DNA from: an archaeon
GTDB lineage: Archaea > Micrarchaeota > Micrarchaeia > Norongarragalinales > UBA97
Assembly (NCBI GenBank): GCA_020057405.1
Contig: JAGVFW010000013.1
Span: forward strand, 87,711 to 151,710
Reading direction: 5' to 3'
Length of the DNA: 64,000 bases
In this document: positions 374 through 33,789 of the stretch, in pieces
Numbering within the stretch: the first letter of the stretch is position 1
Layout: each line of letters starts with the position of its first letter
Position numbers and translations under genes: made by a program
Notes under the pieces: model-generated
Told to the model about the DNA's origin: nothing
The model's database searches: none
Seen by the model: only the letters and a program-made list of their open reading frames with translations

Positions 374-694
374 ATGAGTTTAGGTAGGAAAAGTTTGGTG
401 GCCGTGCTACTGCTAATGGCAGTGCCTCTGGCGTTTGCGCAAACGCCCACGCCGCCGGGACAGGAAGTGGCTGGAAAGTTGTGCAGCATAGTGGATTTCG
501 TGCAGTACATTGCCGGCGCGGTGGGTATAGTGGTCCTCGCAGTATTGGGACTCCAGTTCGTCACGGTCGGCTCCAACCCCATGAGAAGAGAGGAGCTAAA
601 GACGCAGATGGGATTGGCGCTGATGGGCTTGTTCATCGTGCTTGTCTCGAAGTCCCTGGTTGGCCTCATACTGCCAAACGCGGCAACCTGCTAA
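374..694 (+). CDS. VirB2/TrbC-like pilin
   Basis: 106 aa; signal peptide ending AFA, then two hydrophobic helices separated by a charged loop (SNPMRREELK); first gene of a VirB4-containing operon. Confidence 0.75.
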   Translation: MSLGRKSLVAVLLLMAVPLAFAQTPTPPGQEVAGKLCSIVDFVQYIAGAVGIVVLAVLGLQFVTVGSNPMRREELKTQMGLALMGLFIVLVSKSLVGLILPNAATC

Positions 695-708
695 AACCGG
701 GTAAGCAC

Positions 709-2238
709 GTGGGATGGGTTTTGGCGGCAGCGGTACTGCTTGCAGTGGTCGGGATGGCGGCGGGGGAGAGTGTGCAAGAGATTGTCGCCGCTACAAACTT
801 GCTTGACAACACTCGACCCGCGTTCCAGCTAGTGCAGGCGGCTAACGCCAACTTGACTTGCTGCGGCAAAGGCCCGCCAGTAGGGGCCGCCAACGCAAGC
901 TCGCCTGCCGGAACTACGTTTGCGAAGCTCGTGGACTTTAGCCCAAGTGTTTTTGACGTGCTTTCTGGCGAGCTCGTGCTCAATCAAACTGGCAATGTCA
1001 CTACCTTTGCTTCTGCGACAATACTCAAGCCGCAGTTAAGCGGGCAAGGCGACTGCAAGACAGTGAAGCTGCTTTCAACAGTAAACTCGAGCCTGACCCT
1101 AACGCAAGTGCCGCAGGGAAAAGTTCTTGCGAGAACAGGACACTTTGAGTCCCCGCAACTTGACTTTAATTCCTTTCAAAACTATTCCGCCGGTTGGCCA
1201 AGGCGAGGGCGCACGGAGCTGCCGTACGACTTGGACGGCGGGGAAGGAAAAGAAGCGCTCGGCTTGAGGCTCAACTACTCGGTTCAAGCGACTTTCACCG
1301 TAGCGCACTACAAGAACGTGCAACACCGAGTTTGTTTCATCACTTGTTTCTACTACTGGACCTGCGACTACTCAAGCCAAGAACAAAAAGCCTACCTCTT
1401 AGCTGCAGTTCAAACGCAAAACGCATCGTACTACGCAGGAGGGCCCGGGGCCGAGTCGGTAGAAGAACTCGCAAGCGGGGGACTTACGTCAAACACGACG
1501 ATTGAGATGAAGACGCCATTCGACTACGTGAAAATCACGGCCGGCGCCGCCACTGCGAAAATCCGCACTGCCGCTTTCCCCCTTTCGTATGAGAATTCAA
1601 GTTACGAGTTCATCAGGATAAACGCAGTGCCAACGCACGCCAGCGAGACAGTGGGTGCACGTATTTTGAGGGAGTCGAAGTTAGGCACTACAGTAAATTT
1701 GGAAGTTTGGTTTCCTGCTTCATCACAAGCGCAAGTGCTCCTGCAAACGCCATTCGCGGAGGTACGCTTGGCTGCCAGCATAAGCCGGGTTAGTGCGGAA
1801 AGACTGGCCGTCATCGCAGCGCGGAGCGGTCGGGCTGGAGAGAAAATTAACGCGACTGCTAGCGTAACTTTTGAAAACGGCTCGCCTGTTGAAGGCAGGC
1901 TGGTGAAATTCACTTTGCCGGAATCGGCTGGTTACGACGCGATGACCAACGGCAGCGGGTTGGCCGTCGCGAGCTTTTTGATGCCTGAAGGGCAAAACGC
2001 GGTCGTGAAGGCAAGCGAATCAAACGGGGCGCGGGAGCTCGAGGCGCAAAGCACGGTTTTCGTGCAAAACTCTTCTCCTCGGCTGCTTCTCGACTACGCC
2101 CAACTGGCCTTAGCCTGCGCGATTGGATTTTGGTGCATTCTTTTCGGGCTTGGCTTGCGCCGTGAAGCGAGTCATGCACTTGGGACAGGGCTTGCTTGTG
2201 CGGCAATGCTGTTTGTCGCCTACTCGGTGGTCGGATGA
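709..2238 (+). CDS. secreted, C-terminally membrane-anchored protein with an Ig-like domain (T4SS-locus associated)
   Basis: Likely start is GTG 709 after the pilin stop; signal peptide, Cys cluster (CFITCFYYWTC), Ig/Big-like segment (ENGSPVEGRLVKF…TNGSGLA), two C-terminal TM helices. Confidence 0.7.
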   Translation: MGWVLAAAVLLAVVGMAAGESVQEIVAATNLLDNTRPAFQLVQAANANLTCCGKGPPVGAANASSPAGTTFAKLVDFSPSVFDVLSGELVLNQTGNVTTFASATILKPQLSGQGDCKTVKLLSTVNSSLTLTQVPQGKVLARTGHFESPQLDFNSFQNYSAGWPRRGRTELPYDLDGGEGKEALGLRLNYSVQATFTVAHYKNVQHRVCFITCFYYWTCDYSSQEQKAYLLAAVQTQNASYYAGGPGAESVEELASGGLTSNTTIEMKTPFDYVKITAGAATAKIRTAAFPLSYENSSYEFIRINAVPTHASETVGARILRESKLGTTVNLEVWFPASSQAQVLLQTPFAEVRLAASISRVSAERLAVIAARSGRAGEKINATASVTFENGSPVEGRLVKFTLPESAGYDAMTNGSGLAVASFLMPEGQNAVVKASESNGARELEAQSTVFVQNSSPRLLLDYAQLALACAIGFWCILFGLGLRREASHALGTGLACAAMLFVAYSVVG

Positions 2239-18100: not shown

Positions 18101-19027
18101 GTGGGCTTGCAGGCAACTATCATCGGGGCAGGAAGGACAGGCAGCAGAATAGCTGCCGCACTGGCAAAAACCAGCCTGACGCTGACGATAATCGACCGCG
18201 ACTGCCTGGAAGAAAGCGACCTGACCGACAGCCCCGTTTACGGCCGCGCCGACTTGGGCAAAATGAAGGCCGAGGCGCTCGCAAAACACGTTGGCGCATA
18301 CGGAACTCCGATTTGCGAACACTTGTGCGCACAAAACATCGACGAACTGCTTGAAGGCACCCGAATCGTGCTTGACGCTACCGACAACTGGCACGCCCGC
18401 GCGCTAGTCAACGAATGGTGCTGGAAAACCAAAACCCCATGGATCTACTCGGGCGCCCTGGCCGCAAAAGCCATGGCTAGCGCCATCACCCCACCCCAAA
18501 AACCATGCTGGCTTTGTTGGAATGCGATTGAACCCACCCAAGTGCTAAGCTGCAGCACGAGCGGCATCGACGGACGCGCGGCAGACGCGGCCGCGCAAAA
18601 GGCGGTCGAACAAGCGCAAGCGATTGCGCAAGAAAAACGGCCAGAGCTGGCGGGAAAACTGTTTTTCGCCGATGTCGGAAAAAAAGTGGAGACGCAAACC
18701 CCCCTTGTCGCAAACCCGGAATGCCCGGTCTGCGCAAAGGGCAAGCTTCCGCTGCTTAACGGAACGGAAACGGCGCAACTCGTGTGTGGAAGCGGGCAAT
18801 GGCTCTTTCTGAATGTGGGCCTGAAGGAAAAAGTTAGGCACTACACCGTACAAGCGCTCGCGGCGAAACTTGGCCGCGGGGCAACGGCAATTGAAAGCGT
18901 GGTGCAAATAACGCGGGAAAAAGCAAGCGCCATCGTTTTTCCCGGCGGACGCGCCACAATAAGGGCAAAGGACGAGCCTGCCGCACGCAAGCTCAACGAC
19001 GAGATTGCCGAGCGCCTCTCCGCGTAA
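18101..19027 (+). CDS. ThiF/MoeB/E1-like adenylyltransferase
   Basis: IIGAGRTG, IDRD, VLDATDN, CWLC, SC…G, CPVC. Confidence 0.9.
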   Translation: MGLQATIIGAGRTGSRIAAALAKTSLTLTIIDRDCLEESDLTDSPVYGRADLGKMKAEALAKHVGAYGTPICEHLCAQNIDELLEGTRIVLDATDNWHARALVNEWCWKTKTPWIYSGALAAKAMASAITPPQKPCWLCWNAIEPTQVLSCSTSGIDGRAADAAAQKAVEQAQAIAQEKRPELAGKLFFADVGKKVETQTPLVANPECPVCAKGKLPLLNGTETAQLVCGSGQWLFLNVGLKEKVRHYTVQALAAKLGRGATAIESVVQITREKASAIVFPGGRATIRAKDEPAARKLNDEIAERLSA

Positions 19028-20237: not shown

Positions 20238-20356
20238 CGGGCGCGGAGGGATTCGGACCCTCGGCCTGCCGCACTTAGCTCACTAGCTGCTAAAACAACG
20301 CTCACTAGGGTCGCTGTTAAGAGCCGGCCGCTCTAACCAAACTGAGCTACGCGCCC
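20238..20356 (-). tRNA. tRNA-Lys(CTT) with a 44-nt intron (20272-20315)
   Basis: GGGCGCG/CGCGCCC acceptor, GCTC/GAGC D stem, GCCGG-CTCTTAA-C|CGGC, T stem GAGGG/CCCTC. Confidence 0.88.
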
Positions 20357-21540: not shown

Positions 21541-21615
21541 AGCGGGGTAGGGTAGCCAGGAGTGCCCGCTGGGCTCATAACCCGGAGACCACAGGTTCAA
21601 ATCCTGTCCCCGCTA
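21541..21615 (+). tRNA. initiator tRNA-Met(CAT)
   Basis: AGCGGGG…CCCCGCTA with A1-U72; GGG-CTCATAA-CCC anticodon stem; GGTTCAAATCC. Confidence 0.95.
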
Positions 21616-21798
21616 CCTACTTTTCTTCCGCTTAGCTTGGGGCTTGGTCCGTTTCTTGCGCGCGAAAACTTTGGCTGGCGGCTGCTGGCTTCCGAAGTAC
21701 CTGAGCACTTTTTGCATCACACGGCCATTGACGCGCTTGCTCTCGACTAAGTAGTAGTAGAGGTTGCCCTTGATTTTCTTGCTGCGCACGAATGCCAT
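21613..21798 (-). CDS. small basic beta-sheet DNA-binding-like protein
   Basis: MAFVRSKKIKGNLYYYLVESKRVNGRVMQKVLRYFG plus a Lys/Arg tail; resembles the N-terminal module of IS1634-type transposases but has no catalytic domain. Confidence 0.75.
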   Translation of the reverse strand: MAFVRSKKIKGNLYYYLVESKRVNGRVMQKVLRYFGSQQPPAKVFARKKRTKPQAKRKKSR

Positions 21799-21856
21799 GG
21801 AAAAAGTTAGGCACTACAGGAATAAAAAGCGCTCGCTGGAAAAAGTTAGGCACTAC
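21798..21856. promoter_or_regulatory. two exact 20-bp direct repeats TGGAAAAAGTTAGGCACTAC (21798-21817 and 21837-21856)
   Basis: Read directly from the sequence; they fill the intergenic gap at the start codon of the small basic gene. Confidence 0.85.
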
Positions 21857-21858
21857 GC

Positions 21859-22191
21859 TTACTTCTTCATGTACCGATAGCGCATCGCGGTGTAGGGCTT
21901 GGGCGCTTCGGGCTGGACTTCGGCTTCCGGCTCCTCGATAGTTGGCGCTTCGGAGACGATGATGATTTTCTCGGCCGCCTTGACGTTTTTGTAGAGTATT
22001 GTCTTTTCCCTGAAGAGCTTGGCGGCATCAAGTTTGTTCGACGCGTGAATCGGCTCTAGGGACAGTCGCGAGACTTCGCCCTTCTGCAAGTCGATGATGG
22101 CATCCTGTACCGTGCCGATTTTTTTTGCGCCGCCAGCCGTGTAAACAGCCATACCGATGAGTTCAGAAACCCGTTTCATTACTATAACCAA
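21859..22191 (-). CDS. PRC-barrel domain protein
   Basis: SELIGMAVYT…IGTVQDAIID…G. Confidence 0.85.
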   Translation of the reverse strand: MVIVMKRVSELIGMAVYTAGGAKKIGTVQDAIIDLQKGEVSRLSLEPIHASNKLDAAKLFREKTILYKNVKAAEKIIIVSEAPTIEEPEAEVQPEAPKPYTAMRYRYMKK

Positions 22192-25948: not shown

Positions 25949-26338
25949 TCAGAGTATGACAAAGGAAATGGGTTTGCCCTTCGAGCTGAAAGCCGCAGTC
26001 ATGCCCACGGAGTAGGGTGGGCCGGAAGCAATCAAGTGCGCGCGGCCGTAACGGCCGAACAGGTGCAGGTCCGCAGACGACGGTCGCGCCGGGCTGTTGG
26101 GGTGCGAGTGGAACGTTCCAACGATGCCTGCCGAAAGCGGGACGTTAACCGAGTCAAACCACACGCTAGAGGAATTGGCTTCCGAAAGCGGCGCGAGATA
26201 GAGTTTTTCGACAATCACGTCCTCGCCATCGTAGCGGCCGGGAAACAGGCCGAGAAACTCGTTCGGGTAGCTGTTGGCCGCGCCAAGCAGGCAACTTTCA
26301 AAAACATCGCGCGGGAGCAGGAGTCGCATCAAAATCAC
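25949..26338 (-). CDS. JAMM/MPN+ (Mov34) metalloprotease
   Basis: PNE…FHSHP…PSSAD. Confidence 0.9.
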   Translation of the reverse strand: MILMRLLLPRDVFESCLLGAANSYPNEFLGLFPGRYDGEDVIVEKLYLAPLSEANSSSVWFDSVNVPLSAGIVGTFHSHPNSPARPSSADLHLFGRYGRAHLIASGPPYSVGMTAAFSSKGKPISFVIL

Positions 26339-26443
26339 TCTTTGTAGTGCCTAACTTTCCTTCCTCATCCACGGGCGCCCGGTTTCTGTCACTGCGGTTC
26401 CCCCTTACTGTTATTAAGTTGCTTGCCTACATATACTTTCATA

Positions 26444-26794
26444 ATGACTGTATTTTCCTGCAGCAATTGCGCCTTTCGTTTCGAGGGCGACGCGCCCAAG
26501 GCGTGCCCGCGCTGTGCAAGTATTGACATTACTGAATTCCGCCAGACGCGTCACGAGCGTGGAGGCGTAACTATCGTCCGCGAGGAACGCCCGGCGCCCG
26601 AAGGCACGGACGGGAAGCCCCACAAACTAATGCACTACCGTGAGGGCAAGGCGGGCTGGCAGGACTTCCACAATCAACAGTCGACCGCGTGCCCCAACTG
26701 TGGGGGCACCGAATTCGACCGAGACGCCAAACGCAAGGAAAAAGTCTGCCGCAAGTGCGGCGAAGTCATGCCCCTCCCGCGCAGGTACGCGTAG
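26444..26794 (+). CDS. double zinc-ribbon protein
   Basis: CSNC/CPRC and CPNC/CRKC pairs. Confidence 0.75.
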   Translation: MTVFSCSNCAFRFEGDAPKACPRCASIDITEFRQTRHERGGVTIVREERPAPEGTDGKPHKLMHYREGKAGWQDFHNQQSTACPNCGGTEFDRDAKRKEKVCRKCGEVMPLPRRYA

Positions 26795-32760: not shown

Positions 32761-32842
32761 TGTAGTGCCTAACTTGGCGTGCGCTGATTGGCCTGTAGTG
32801 CCTAACTGTGTTAGCCGGGCTTGCCGTTTGTAGTGCCTAACT
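32761..32842. repeat. three direct copies of TGTAGTGCCTAACT (starts 32761, 32794, 32829)
   Basis: Exact 14-mers with unrelated 19- and 21-nt spacers, between convergent ppcA and minD. Confidence 0.9.
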
Positions 32843-32853
32843 TTATTTGGCCC

Positions 32854-33789
32854 TTAGCGGTCAAATCCCATCATTTCGTCAAACCGCTCGTCCGCGCCCT
32901 TTAGACCGCGCCAGAGTTTTTCGTGGAACTTTAGTTTTTTTGGCGTTTCCTCGAACTCTCCGCACACTTTGGCAGCCAAGTCGATTAGTTCCTTGCCCGC
33001 GGGGCTCTTTGGCTTTGAGATTACGACGGGGATTTCCGCGGCAAGGCTGCGGTGCACTTCGACGTCGGTGGGCACTTTGGAAATCACCTTTAGCTGTGAT
33101 AGCTTCTCGACTTCGTCGACCGACATCTGGTGTTCCTTTCCGTCAAACATGTTTAGCACGATGCCCAGGTGCACCTTGTCTTCGCCTTGCAGGGCCTGCC
33201 GGTAGCGCACGATGTCGATTACCGATGGCATGGTTGGTATTGAGACGTAAAGGAGCTTTTCGGCAGCGAACAGGGTGGCAAACGCTTCCCGTCCCAGGCC
33301 CGGGCCGGCGTCAAGCACGACGTAGTCATATGAGAGTGCGAGCTGCTTGGCGATTTTCTTGATTTGGGAAACGTCGACGGCCTGGATGTTGGTCGCCTTC
33401 ATTGACGCCGGCAGCACGGTCATGCCGCTTGGCTCGTGCTTGTATAGCGCTTCGGTGAGCTTGGCTTTCCCGCGCAGCACGTCGTTTAGCGTGTGCGGCG
33501 CGTAATGCATGCCGAGGGCCACACCTAGGTGCGACGTGCCGATGTTGCAGTCAATGACGACTACTTTTTTTCCAAACTCGTGCGCGAGGGCAGCGGCGAG
33601 GTTGATTGACACCGTAGTTTTGCCTACCCCGCCCTTGCCGGAGACTACGCCGATGAGTTCGCCCGGAGGCCTGGGCCCGGTTTTCTTCCCTTCTTTTTTT
33701 TCCTCTAGCGTCTTTTTTTCCTCTGGGGGTTTGGCATTTTTTCTCTCTTCCGCCTTCTTATCTTCTTTTCCGCTTTCCTTTGCGCCCAT
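32854..33789 (-). CDS. minD: MinD/ParA-family ATPase
   Basis: Deviant Walker A SGKGGVGKTT, VIDCN, LDAGPG; Lys/Glu-rich N-terminal extension. Confidence 0.9.
   Translation of the reverse strand: MGAKESGKEDKKAEERKNAKPPEEKKTLEEKKEGKKTGPRPPGELIGVVSGKGGVGKTTVSINLAAALAHEFGKKVVVIDCNIGTSHLGVALGMHYAPHTLNDVLRGKAKLTEALYKHEPSGMTVLPASMKATNIQAVDVSQIKKIAKQLALSYDYVVLDAGPGLGREAFATLFAAEKLLYVSIPTMPSVIDIVRYRQALQGEDKVHLGIVLNMFDGKEHQMSVDEVEKLSQLKVISKVPTDVEVHRSLAAEIPVVISKPKSPAGKELIDLAAKVCGEFEETPKKLKFHEKLWRGLKGADERFDEMMGFDR

Follow-up and report, generated by a model that had tools for sequence, protein, structure and literature searches.

The window analyzed here is the 64,000-nt stretch at positions 87711-151710 of contig C17 in a genome of the archaeal phylum Micrarchaeota (G000; 1.22 Mb, 17 contigs, 56% G+C), and our subject is a gene for a basic protein of 61 amino acids (aa) together with the DNA word repeated at its start. 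The gene lies among genes for a PRC-barrel protein, TFE, Trm56 and tRNAs, has no NTPase gene in its operon, and its open reading frame (ORF) overlaps by 5 nt with the 3' end of a tRNA-Met gene on the other strand (21541-21617). The translation of 21613-21798 on the minus strand (MAFVRSKKIKGNLYYYLVESKRVNGRVMQKVLRYFGSQQPPAKVFARKKRTKPQAKRKKSR) contains 12 K and 8 R but only a single acidic residue, an E (no D; pI 11.6; 7.3 kDa), in line with the original prediction, made from the DNA letters, of a Lys/Arg-rich protein. The 20-mer TGGAAAAAGTTAGGCACTAC (also given as TGTAGTGCCTAACTTTTTCC) occurs twice in identical form, at 21798-21817 and 21837-21856. These copies had been described as exact direct repeats 39 bp apart, the first touching the ATG, and this description holds if 39 bp is read as the start-to-start period; the gap between the copies is 19 bp, and the A of the ATG (21796-21798 in plus-strand coordinates) forms a one-base overlap with the first copy. 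In the direction of the gene, the order is the stop codon of the PRC-barrel gene, GTAGTGCCTAACTTTTTCC, 19 nt that include the TATA-like box TTTTTATT, GTAGTGCCTAACTTTTTCC again, and the ATG (Table 1). Relative to the ATG, the distal core lies at -47 to -58, the TATA-like box at -24 to -31 and the proximal core at -8 to -19, 7 nt separating the end of the latter from the ATG. Centered about 27 nt ahead of the ATG, the TATA-like box is placed as in a leaderless promoter of archaea, and this position implies that the mRNA of the 61-aa gene would be leaderless. At the level of the sequence, the locus has the layout of a promoter-occluding autorepressor, with a putative operator flanking the TATA and the start of its own gene. 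The 13-mer form of the word is present 8 times in the window compared with 0.01 expected, and none of 100 shuffles reached 8. Judging from these and the comparative data below, the 61-aa protein most likely recognizes the 14-base word that brackets its own promoter.

The N-terminal part of the protein is a module with a wide distribution. A scan of 1.84 billion representatives yielded 247 homologous representative clusters at E<=1e-3, most of them 43-100 aa and some 200-540 aa in length. Across an alignment of 82 sequences, G36 is invariant and K7, Y14, Y16, V18, Q29 and Y34 are conserved to at least 90%. The AlphaFold2 model built with this alignment has three antiparallel strands (E2-9, E12-23 and E26-36) at a mean pLDDT of 83.5, with a pLDDT of at least 90 for 36 residues and low confidence for the tail, so that the three-stranded beta-sheet module of the original prediction is also what the model predicts. 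Because of the 247 clusters, the conserved residues and the confident fold prediction, the 61-aa ORF is a real gene of a large undescribed family. Pfam gave no match to the 61-aa protein at E<=1 and only scattered chance hits for all 82 members, the only NCBIfam match was at chance level (ramA_TF, E 0.02), and a profile search against PDB sequences returned nothing at E<=10. Named homologs are annotated as "hypothetical protein" (e.g., in Woesearchaeota), and the protein atlas holds unnamed clusters only, one of them mostly bacterial.

The same module stands at the N-terminus of the IS1634 transposases P0062, L058 and L060 (NF033559, E 6e-103 to 1e-71), where its consensus of about 40 aa reads MxFIRxKxxKGxxYYYLVExxRxxGKVxQKxLxYLG. 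The original prediction had placed it there as established knowledge; the profile matches agree with the placement, and no paper describing the module in these transposases was found. Further fusions join the module to Fic domains, HNH nucleases, an integrase SAM-like domain, an EgtD-like methyltransferase and a PEP-utilizing domain, and it is present in 114 of the 251 genomes of a phylum-wide sample (a tally that counts the unpublished genome G216), mostly in frames of about 300-320 aa. The model of a Fic fusion shows strands E2-9, E12-23 and E26-35 and a helix H38-47 before a FICD-like domain, while the stand-alone forms of G000, G002, G017, G021 and G025 have a basic tail predicted to be disordered. 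By homology, the 61-aa protein is closest to the N-terminal regions of IS1634 transposases and archaeal Fic proteins.

We read the upstream DNA of every module gene whose start was located in the fetched loci. An inverted GTAG[TC]...[GA]CTAC pair lies within 110 nt upstream of 19 of 40 distinct module genes compared with 2 of 137 control ORFs from the same loci, and the exact word differs between subfamilies (TGTAGTG.., TGTAGYCAT, GTGCCCCCTAA and GTGGACACAA). In the Fic-fused subfamily (KGNxYYYELVES..KVxQK; ...YFPSxxEAxxYAK), tGTAGTG(G/C)GGAAC precedes a TATA box, past which (G/C)GCACTACa stands 8-10 nt upstream of the ATG, and this inverted layout, tGTAGTG(G/C)..-TATA-..(G/C)CACTACa, was seen in genomes of many families. 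Promoters of the "SPTKVxKVR" subfamily carry TGTAGTCAT / TGTAGCCAT; this group includes the only other module protein found in G000, a Fic-type paralog of 313 aa and "SPTKVSKVR" type (C6:81634-81816) whose promoter pair is the inverted ATGGCTACA ... TGTAGCCAT and not the word of the window, which among the two is found only at the stand-alone gene. Two direct copies of GTGCCCCCTAA precede genes of the "KWKKxRKYLG" subfamily and two direct copies of GTGGACACAA those of the 577-aa PEP-utilizing fusions, and in the left end of IS1634 elements with a module-headed transposase, (g)accACTACa stands 25-55 nt upstream of the ATG. Fusions with an EgtD-like methyltransferase, a 784-aa glycoside-hydrolase-like protein and a PEP-utilizing domain at L013, L018 and L022/L024 (G005, G023, G034 and G030) each show their own repeated word around the TATA box. 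Among stand-alone forms, the G025 gene (L002) has TTTTATAA flanked by two direct GTAGTGCCTAAC copies at a distance of 43 bp, of which the proximal copy comes within 7 nt of the ATG, and the G002 gene (L014/L057) has a single copy between TTTTTAATTTTT and the ATG.

Since the module is the only part common to all these word-bearing genes, it seems to be the module that reads the word, each gene controlling itself. Residues that vary between subfamilies lie on strand 1 (R5/K7 versus E-K-Q) and on strand 3 (KVxQKVL versus KVxKVRV or KWKKxRK), which would be where the sheet touches the bases. Peptides that the word encodes (VVP[NKT], LGTT or VRHY) stand just outside the module in 25 of 137 metagenomic homologs with a located module, for example in N-terminal extensions with VPNFF or VRHY, at 3.18 per 1000 aa compared with 0.093 in the G000 ORF set. 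The protein-plus-site system that the original prediction had proposed is thus one that the comparison of genomes supports.

On the scale of the whole genome, GTAGTGCCTAAC occurs 24 times in G000, always exact, and is both the most frequent and the most over-represented 12-mer, at a density of 1 per 51 kb. The 14-mer TGTAGTGCCTAACT has 19 exact copies and 4 more in which a single end base deviates; for nine control words, the counts were 0 for exact and 0-1 for one-mismatch matches. The 14-mer is thus without a halo of degenerate sites. Crude longest-ORF calls, with the promoter-proximal copy reassigned from a spurious 73-aa ORF, place 16 copies inside ORFs and 8 between them. It had escaped the original prediction that two-thirds of the genomic copies lie inside coding DNA, and for this reason the system must be more than an operator. 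All three stop-free frames are used, giving VVPN eight times, xLGTT in antisense six times and VRHY in antisense twice. Of the 9 VVPN peptides in ORFs of at least 100 aa, 8 are spelled with the word (0.03 expected), as are 2 of 4 VRHY peptides (0.1 expected), and 6 of 13 LGTT peptides are spelled with TTAGGCACTAC (0.09 expected), with TTA making up 4.4% of Leu codons. In-frame copies encode part of the GGVVPN motif of endonuclease III and of the C-terminus of seryl-tRNA synthetase. At the DNA level, selection on the word is so strong that it determines the choice of codons, even of amino acids. Presence in coding regions is special to this word, because the copies of two other over-represented words of G000 are mostly intergenic (11 of 15 and 11 of 11).

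Table 1. Coordinates of the 61-aa gene, its promoter elements and further copies of the word in the window.
Feature	Position	Strand	Details
61-aa basic protein gene	21613..21798	-	module residues 1-36 and K/R-rich tail 37-61 (11 K/R of 25)
Promoter-proximal site GTAGTGCCTAACTTTTTCC	21799..21817	-	12-mer core 21806-21817; between TATA-like box and start
TATA-like box TTTTTATT	21821..21828	-	centre ~27 nt before ATG; read from sequence
Distal site, identical 19-mer	21838..21856	-	upstream of TATA-like box; 2 nt past PRC-barrel gene stop
PRC-barrel gene	21859-22191		
Exact 20-mer copy GGAAAAAGTTAGGCACTACA	18826..18845	-	in ThiF-family gene 18101-19027 (+), antisense, reads EKVRHYT
Site	1679..1691	-	in ORF 481-2238 (+), antisense, reads KLGTT
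Site	26344..26356	+	divergent intergenic: JAB-domain gene (25949-26338, -) / zinc-ribbon gene (26423-26794, +)
Three direct copies	32762..32842	+	starts 32762, 32795, 32830; spacing 33, 35 bp; convergent 3' ends of phosphoenolpyruvate (PEP) carboxylase / MinD/ParA-type ATPase genes

The sites are found as singles, pairs and arrays, and the latter two are mostly direct repeats with spacings of 13, 23-25, 33-35, 39-43 or 45-66 bp. Some lie ahead of ribD or between iscS and iscU, others immediately precede a TTTATAAA box with no ORF after it, and the space between convergent gene ends is a recurrent location. In G000, 3 of the 20 other loci lie within 12 kb of the 61-aa gene (P ~0.006), and around the genes of G017, G021, G025 and G002 there are 4-5 sites apiece within 3-6 kb, in a syntenic neighborhood of TFE, PRC-barrel, enolase, JAB and zinc-ribbon genes. 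Regular spacing of the sites reached P 0.045 on one contig and gave no signal on two G000 contigs, and Rfam searches of the arrays and the window found no known RNA families beyond two tRNAs. The largest array seen, at L082 (G002:C23:64147-64365), consists of five direct copies inside a repeat unit of about 45-66 bp (GTAGTGCCTAACcccat...). At L084, L085 and L090 (G017:C2, G021:C9 and G033:C23), two abutting copies with a 13-bp period lie directly upstream of TTTATAAA and are followed by a conserved stretch in which neither a convincing ORF nor an Rfam match was found; this may be the activated promoter of a small RNA.

Individual sites turn over between relatives. Only 7 of the 26 sites of G002 can be aligned across the site to G000 (11 have no match there and 8 have a match that does not cover the site), and of these 7, one has an exact counterpart in G000, one sits at the same place with a shift of 3 nt, and the other 5 have no counterpart. 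The shifted one belongs to the ThiF-family gene (Table 1), whose G002 ortholog keeps the site at the corresponding place. Exact copies of the endonuclease III site are found in G000, G017 and G021; in G001 it deviates at 2 bases, and G002 and G025 lack it. The seryl-tRNA synthetase site is present in G000 only among the 5 loci compared.

The high copy number of the word is restricted to few genomes. Among 41 genomes of the order, 12-30 copies are found only in G000, G001 and G002 (family f1) and in G017, G021, G025 and G033 (family f6), with 0-3 copies in the other 34; in the 251-genome phylum sample, more than 2 copies occur in G000 and G002 only. If the protein and the word form one system, motif-rich genomes should carry the gene, as the original prediction had it, and a complete stand-alone basic-tailed homolog is indeed present in 5 of the 7, with a 34-aa fragment at a contig end in a sixth (G001). 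The exception is G033 (15 copies, 78% complete), where no stand-alone gene was found and a Fic fusion with a TGTAGTGCC operator is present. Short forms occur in 4 of the 34 motif-poor genomes. As the motif-rich genomes form two clades, the association of gene and motif is suggestive, not statistical.

From the anatomy of the locus, the family and its predicted fold, the pairing of word and module across lineages and the selection at the DNA level, we infer binding, repression and some role of the dispersed sites. The 61-aa protein would be a sequence-specific binder of double-stranded DNA whose three-stranded sheet module reads the asymmetric word TGTAGTGCCTAAC(T-rich) of about 14 bp as a monomer, with the Lys/Arg-rich tail touching DNA nonspecifically or engaging a partner. 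As the TATA-like box of its presumably leaderless gene is bracketed by two copies in head-to-tail order, the bound protein should block assembly of the transcription machinery and thereby keep its own level constant. That the protein binds the word and acts in negative autoregulation is, on the comparative sequence evidence, probable. The same protein would then occupy about 22 further exact chromosomal sites as singles, pairs and arrays, both between and inside genes, and the dispersed exact sites show a second, chromosome-wide role that is under selection for the protein, or at least for the word. As candidates for this role we keep a regulon in which some sites repress and others activate, roadblocks where genes end, an anchoring of chromosome architecture, and a centromere-like function. 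We file the system as a site-specific binder with an autoregulatory operator, an undescribed DNA-binding domain and an unusual genome-wide extension.

Several observations weigh against this reading. The original prediction called for the motif upstream of homologous genes, and the word or its subfamily variant is indeed found at their own promoters; in the stand-alone genes of G017 and G021, however, the 120 nt next to the ATG hold only a CTAACTTT fragment, the nearest full copies lying about 860-1100 nt upstream. In G003 (L004, G003:C30), the variant GTAGTGCCTAAA is repeated four times at a period of 24 bp in the 3' part of the ORF instead of upstream, encoding a VVPK-repeat tail, and G005 has a single copy at codon 37 and not upstream. 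Among these stand-alone exceptions some copy is always near the module gene, but the operator position is not constant. Many site pairs fall between the ends of convergent genes or within genes, positions that are meaningless for a promoter operator, and the split into coding and intergenic copies inherits the crudeness of the ORF calls. DNA binding is without support from structural homology, as Foldseek searches of the stand-alone model against the PDB returned nothing significant (best E 0.42), with the arm-type domain 3jtz at rank 48 (E 2.4). Co-occurrence of gene and motif, finally, rests on two related clades and is hence not independent evidence. Many metagenomic homologs show VVPx/LGTT/VSTT repeats past the module that are similar to those of G003.

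The most consequential of the candidate roles would make the protein a centromere-like or chromosome-organizing adaptor of the ParR/ParG/SegB kind that coats its sites, engages a partner such as a MinD/ParA-type ATPase through its tail, and autoregulates as a by-product. This would extend the reading as an autoregulatory binder and seems rather unlikely to us, although it agrees with direct repeats that bracket the protein's own promoter, with intergenic arrays of 2-5 direct copies, with the clustering of sites around the gene, with sites that are exact, tolerated in coding DNA and turning over, and with the disordered basic tail of five stand-alone forms. It also draws on the three-copy array, whose end is separated by 12 nt from the stop codon of a gene for a MinD/ParA-type ATPase. 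The product of this gene (32854-33789, minus strand) matches AAA_31 (E 2e-20) and has a deviant Walker A motif (GKGGVGKT) and a 40-aa Lys/Glu-rich N-terminal extension. Against such a role, the array next to the ATPase gene is not repeated in five relatives: its homologs in G001, G002, G017, G021 and G025 are not beside arrays, the nearest listed site being 4-5 kb away in three of them and 16 kb in G002. Archaeal MinD-like ATPases, moreover, serve a variety of functions. The operon of the small gene lacks an NTPase gene, and no origin features were detected near the cluster of sites: the sole Cdc6_C match is on C10, neither ORB-like repeats nor an AT-rich stretch was found near the cluster, and the cumulative skew on C17 is dominated by gene strand and shows no switch there. 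In the boldest version, which we hold to be possible but doubtful, an ancient DNA-reading module freed from a transposase or Fic-regulator enzyme gained a basic tail, and its 14-bp word was seeded at about 25 exact positions to give a chromosome-anchoring or segregation system. Equally doubtful, it would then be a system of a DPANN-type lineage with arrays beside the gene and beside a MinD/ParA-type ATPase gene, with a fold class that is not known in this role and with rewritten codons and amino acids of conserved enzymes.

In ParR/parC of plasmid R1, ParG/parH of TP228 and SegB of Sulfolobus, small site-specific autoregulators with a flexible basic region bind direct repeats that flank or overlap their own promoter, and the same sites serve autoregulation and higher-order complexes. 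ParR, ParG and SegB are ribbon-helix-helix dimers encoded beside an NTPase, whereas here the predicted fold is a three-stranded sheet, the operon has no NTPase gene, and sites are dispersed in coding DNA. We rejected a ParB/parS or type Ib/II plasmid partition system on similar grounds, there being no NTPase in the operon, a predicted sheet in place of a ribbon-helix-helix or helix-turn-helix binder, and a MinD/ParA-type gene 11 kb away. Tus/Ter and MatP/matS work with asymmetric or exact sites of about 13-23 bp, 10-25 per chromosome and partly in genes, and TerB in the tus promoter mediates autoregulation. The 61-aa gene resembles Tus/Ter in the site at the binder's own promoter and in the opposed orientations of sites near the gene, seen locally in 4-5 genomes, but has no sequence or fold relation to either system, and a fork trap of the Tus/Ter type was rejected as the polarity fails along the 452-kb contig G021:C9, with 9 sites in agreement and 9 in conflict with it. 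By behavior, the nearest analogs are ParR/parC, ParG/parH, SegB and Tus/TerB, whose defining features the 61-aa protein does not share.

It is much less probable that another factor reads the word, or that the word itself is a terminator, insulator or uptake signal, with the small gene merely one target. This would account for the position of most copies away from promoters and for the several pairs at convergent gene ends, and exact sites that are tolerated in coding DNA recall bacterial DNA uptake sequences. However, the promoter word changes with the module subfamily and does so across fusions to unrelated enzymes, and the two module proteins of G000 have different words, that of the window standing at the stand-alone gene only. 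One copy per 51 kb is also far below the density of uptake signals, and no T-run or hairpin follows the word consistently. We accordingly rejected DNA uptake sequences and uptake signal sequences, which need hundreds to thousands of copies compared with 24 in 1.22 Mb.

An origin of the copies as relics of mobile elements, be it IS1634-type ends or miniature inverted-repeat transposable elements with the truncated transposase acting as inhibitor, is highly improbable. The module does head IS1634 transposases whose element ends contain CACTACA, and N-terminal transposase fragments are known as repressors (e.g., InsA of IS1). Yet no sequence is shared around the copies past about 14-20 nt, copies lie in frame in the conserved endonuclease III (GGVVPN) and seryl-tRNA synthetase, the gene is syntenic with TFE, PRC-barrel and enolase genes across two families, and the sole other module gene found in G000 is the Fic-type paralog on C6. 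The protein itself cannot be assigned to the IS1634 transposases, with only 61 aa and no Pfam or NF033559 match. Practically negligible is the idea that the ORF is not a gene and the repeats are a noncoding element beside tRNA-Met, which could point to the short ORF, the 5-nt overlap with the tRNA 3' end and the 73-aa ORF in another frame, but meets hundreds of homologs with residues conserved despite variable DNA, a confident fold, a 73-aa frame that is mere read-through of the repeats, and an Rfam result of tRNAs only.

With the autoregulatory binder as the preferred reading, comparison with the two homologous groups shows what is particular to the stand-alone form. The IS1634 transposases share the homologous module at the very N-terminus and CACTACA words in the element ends; unlike them, the 61-aa protein has no DDE catalytic domain or element ends, its basic tail replaces the remainder of the transposase, and its gene is chromosomal, syntenic and single-copy. 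The Fic (FICD/HYPE-like) proteins of DPANN archaea share the module, the core word TGTAGTG(C/G) and two sites that bracket the TATA of a leaderless gene, but their sites are inverted and their genomes hold 0-2 copies of the 12-mer, compared with direct repeats, a basic tail and 12-30 copies for the stand-alone form. Two likenesses to other proteins go less far. The arm-binding domains of Tn916 and lambda integrases and the AP2/ERF domains have a sheet-then-helix topology that is matched in the Fic-fused model only, whereas the stand-alone model lacks any significant match to this fold, as noted above for 3jtz. Sul7d and Cren7 resemble the protein in size, charge, beta-rich structure and archaeal origin, but are SH3-like and not sequence-specific, while the 61-aa protein is tied to one exact word.

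The IS1634 family is called poorly characterized in PMC4549789. If the pairing of module and word holds, it would define an undescribed and widespread DNA-binding domain (at least 247 clusters and 114 of 251 genomes, and also bacteria according to the protein atlas) with a readable recognition code in which four subfamilies have four words. It would explain how IS1634 transposases find their element ends and how the genes of DPANN Fic, methyltransferase, PEP-utilizing and HNH fusions regulate themselves. The stand-alone form would be a rare archaeal case of an exact genomic word kept by selection in coding DNA, and would make chromosome organization or global regulation testable in symbiotic archaea that cannot be cultured alone, with a single 61-aa peptide and a single 20-mer as the point of departure. 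Literature searches, which did not extend to supplements or subscription journals, found no paper on the module, the word or any over-represented coding-tolerant word in archaea, and neither 12-mer appeared in the best 10 of 476 papers listed.

Other repeated words and a further RNA gene came to light in the same analysis. In G000, CGGCAAGCCACT occurs 15 times, 11 of them intergenic and typically 10-15 nt upstream of a TATA-like box, with one copy in the window at about 42197 (C17:129907); it resembles a common upstream promoter element that serves a different regulator. The word GGTCTAAGTGCAGGGGGAG is present 11 times on C1, C6, C11 and C16, always intergenic and often beside TCTAGA-type palindromes. 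Six of its copies lie within C6:79.6-87.2 kb, flanking the Fic paralog, and it may mark cassette boundaries or a mobile region. The second tRNA gene of the window (20238-20356, minus strand; 119 nt; Rfam tRNA, 49.9 bits) was missed by ARAGORN and presumably contains an intron.

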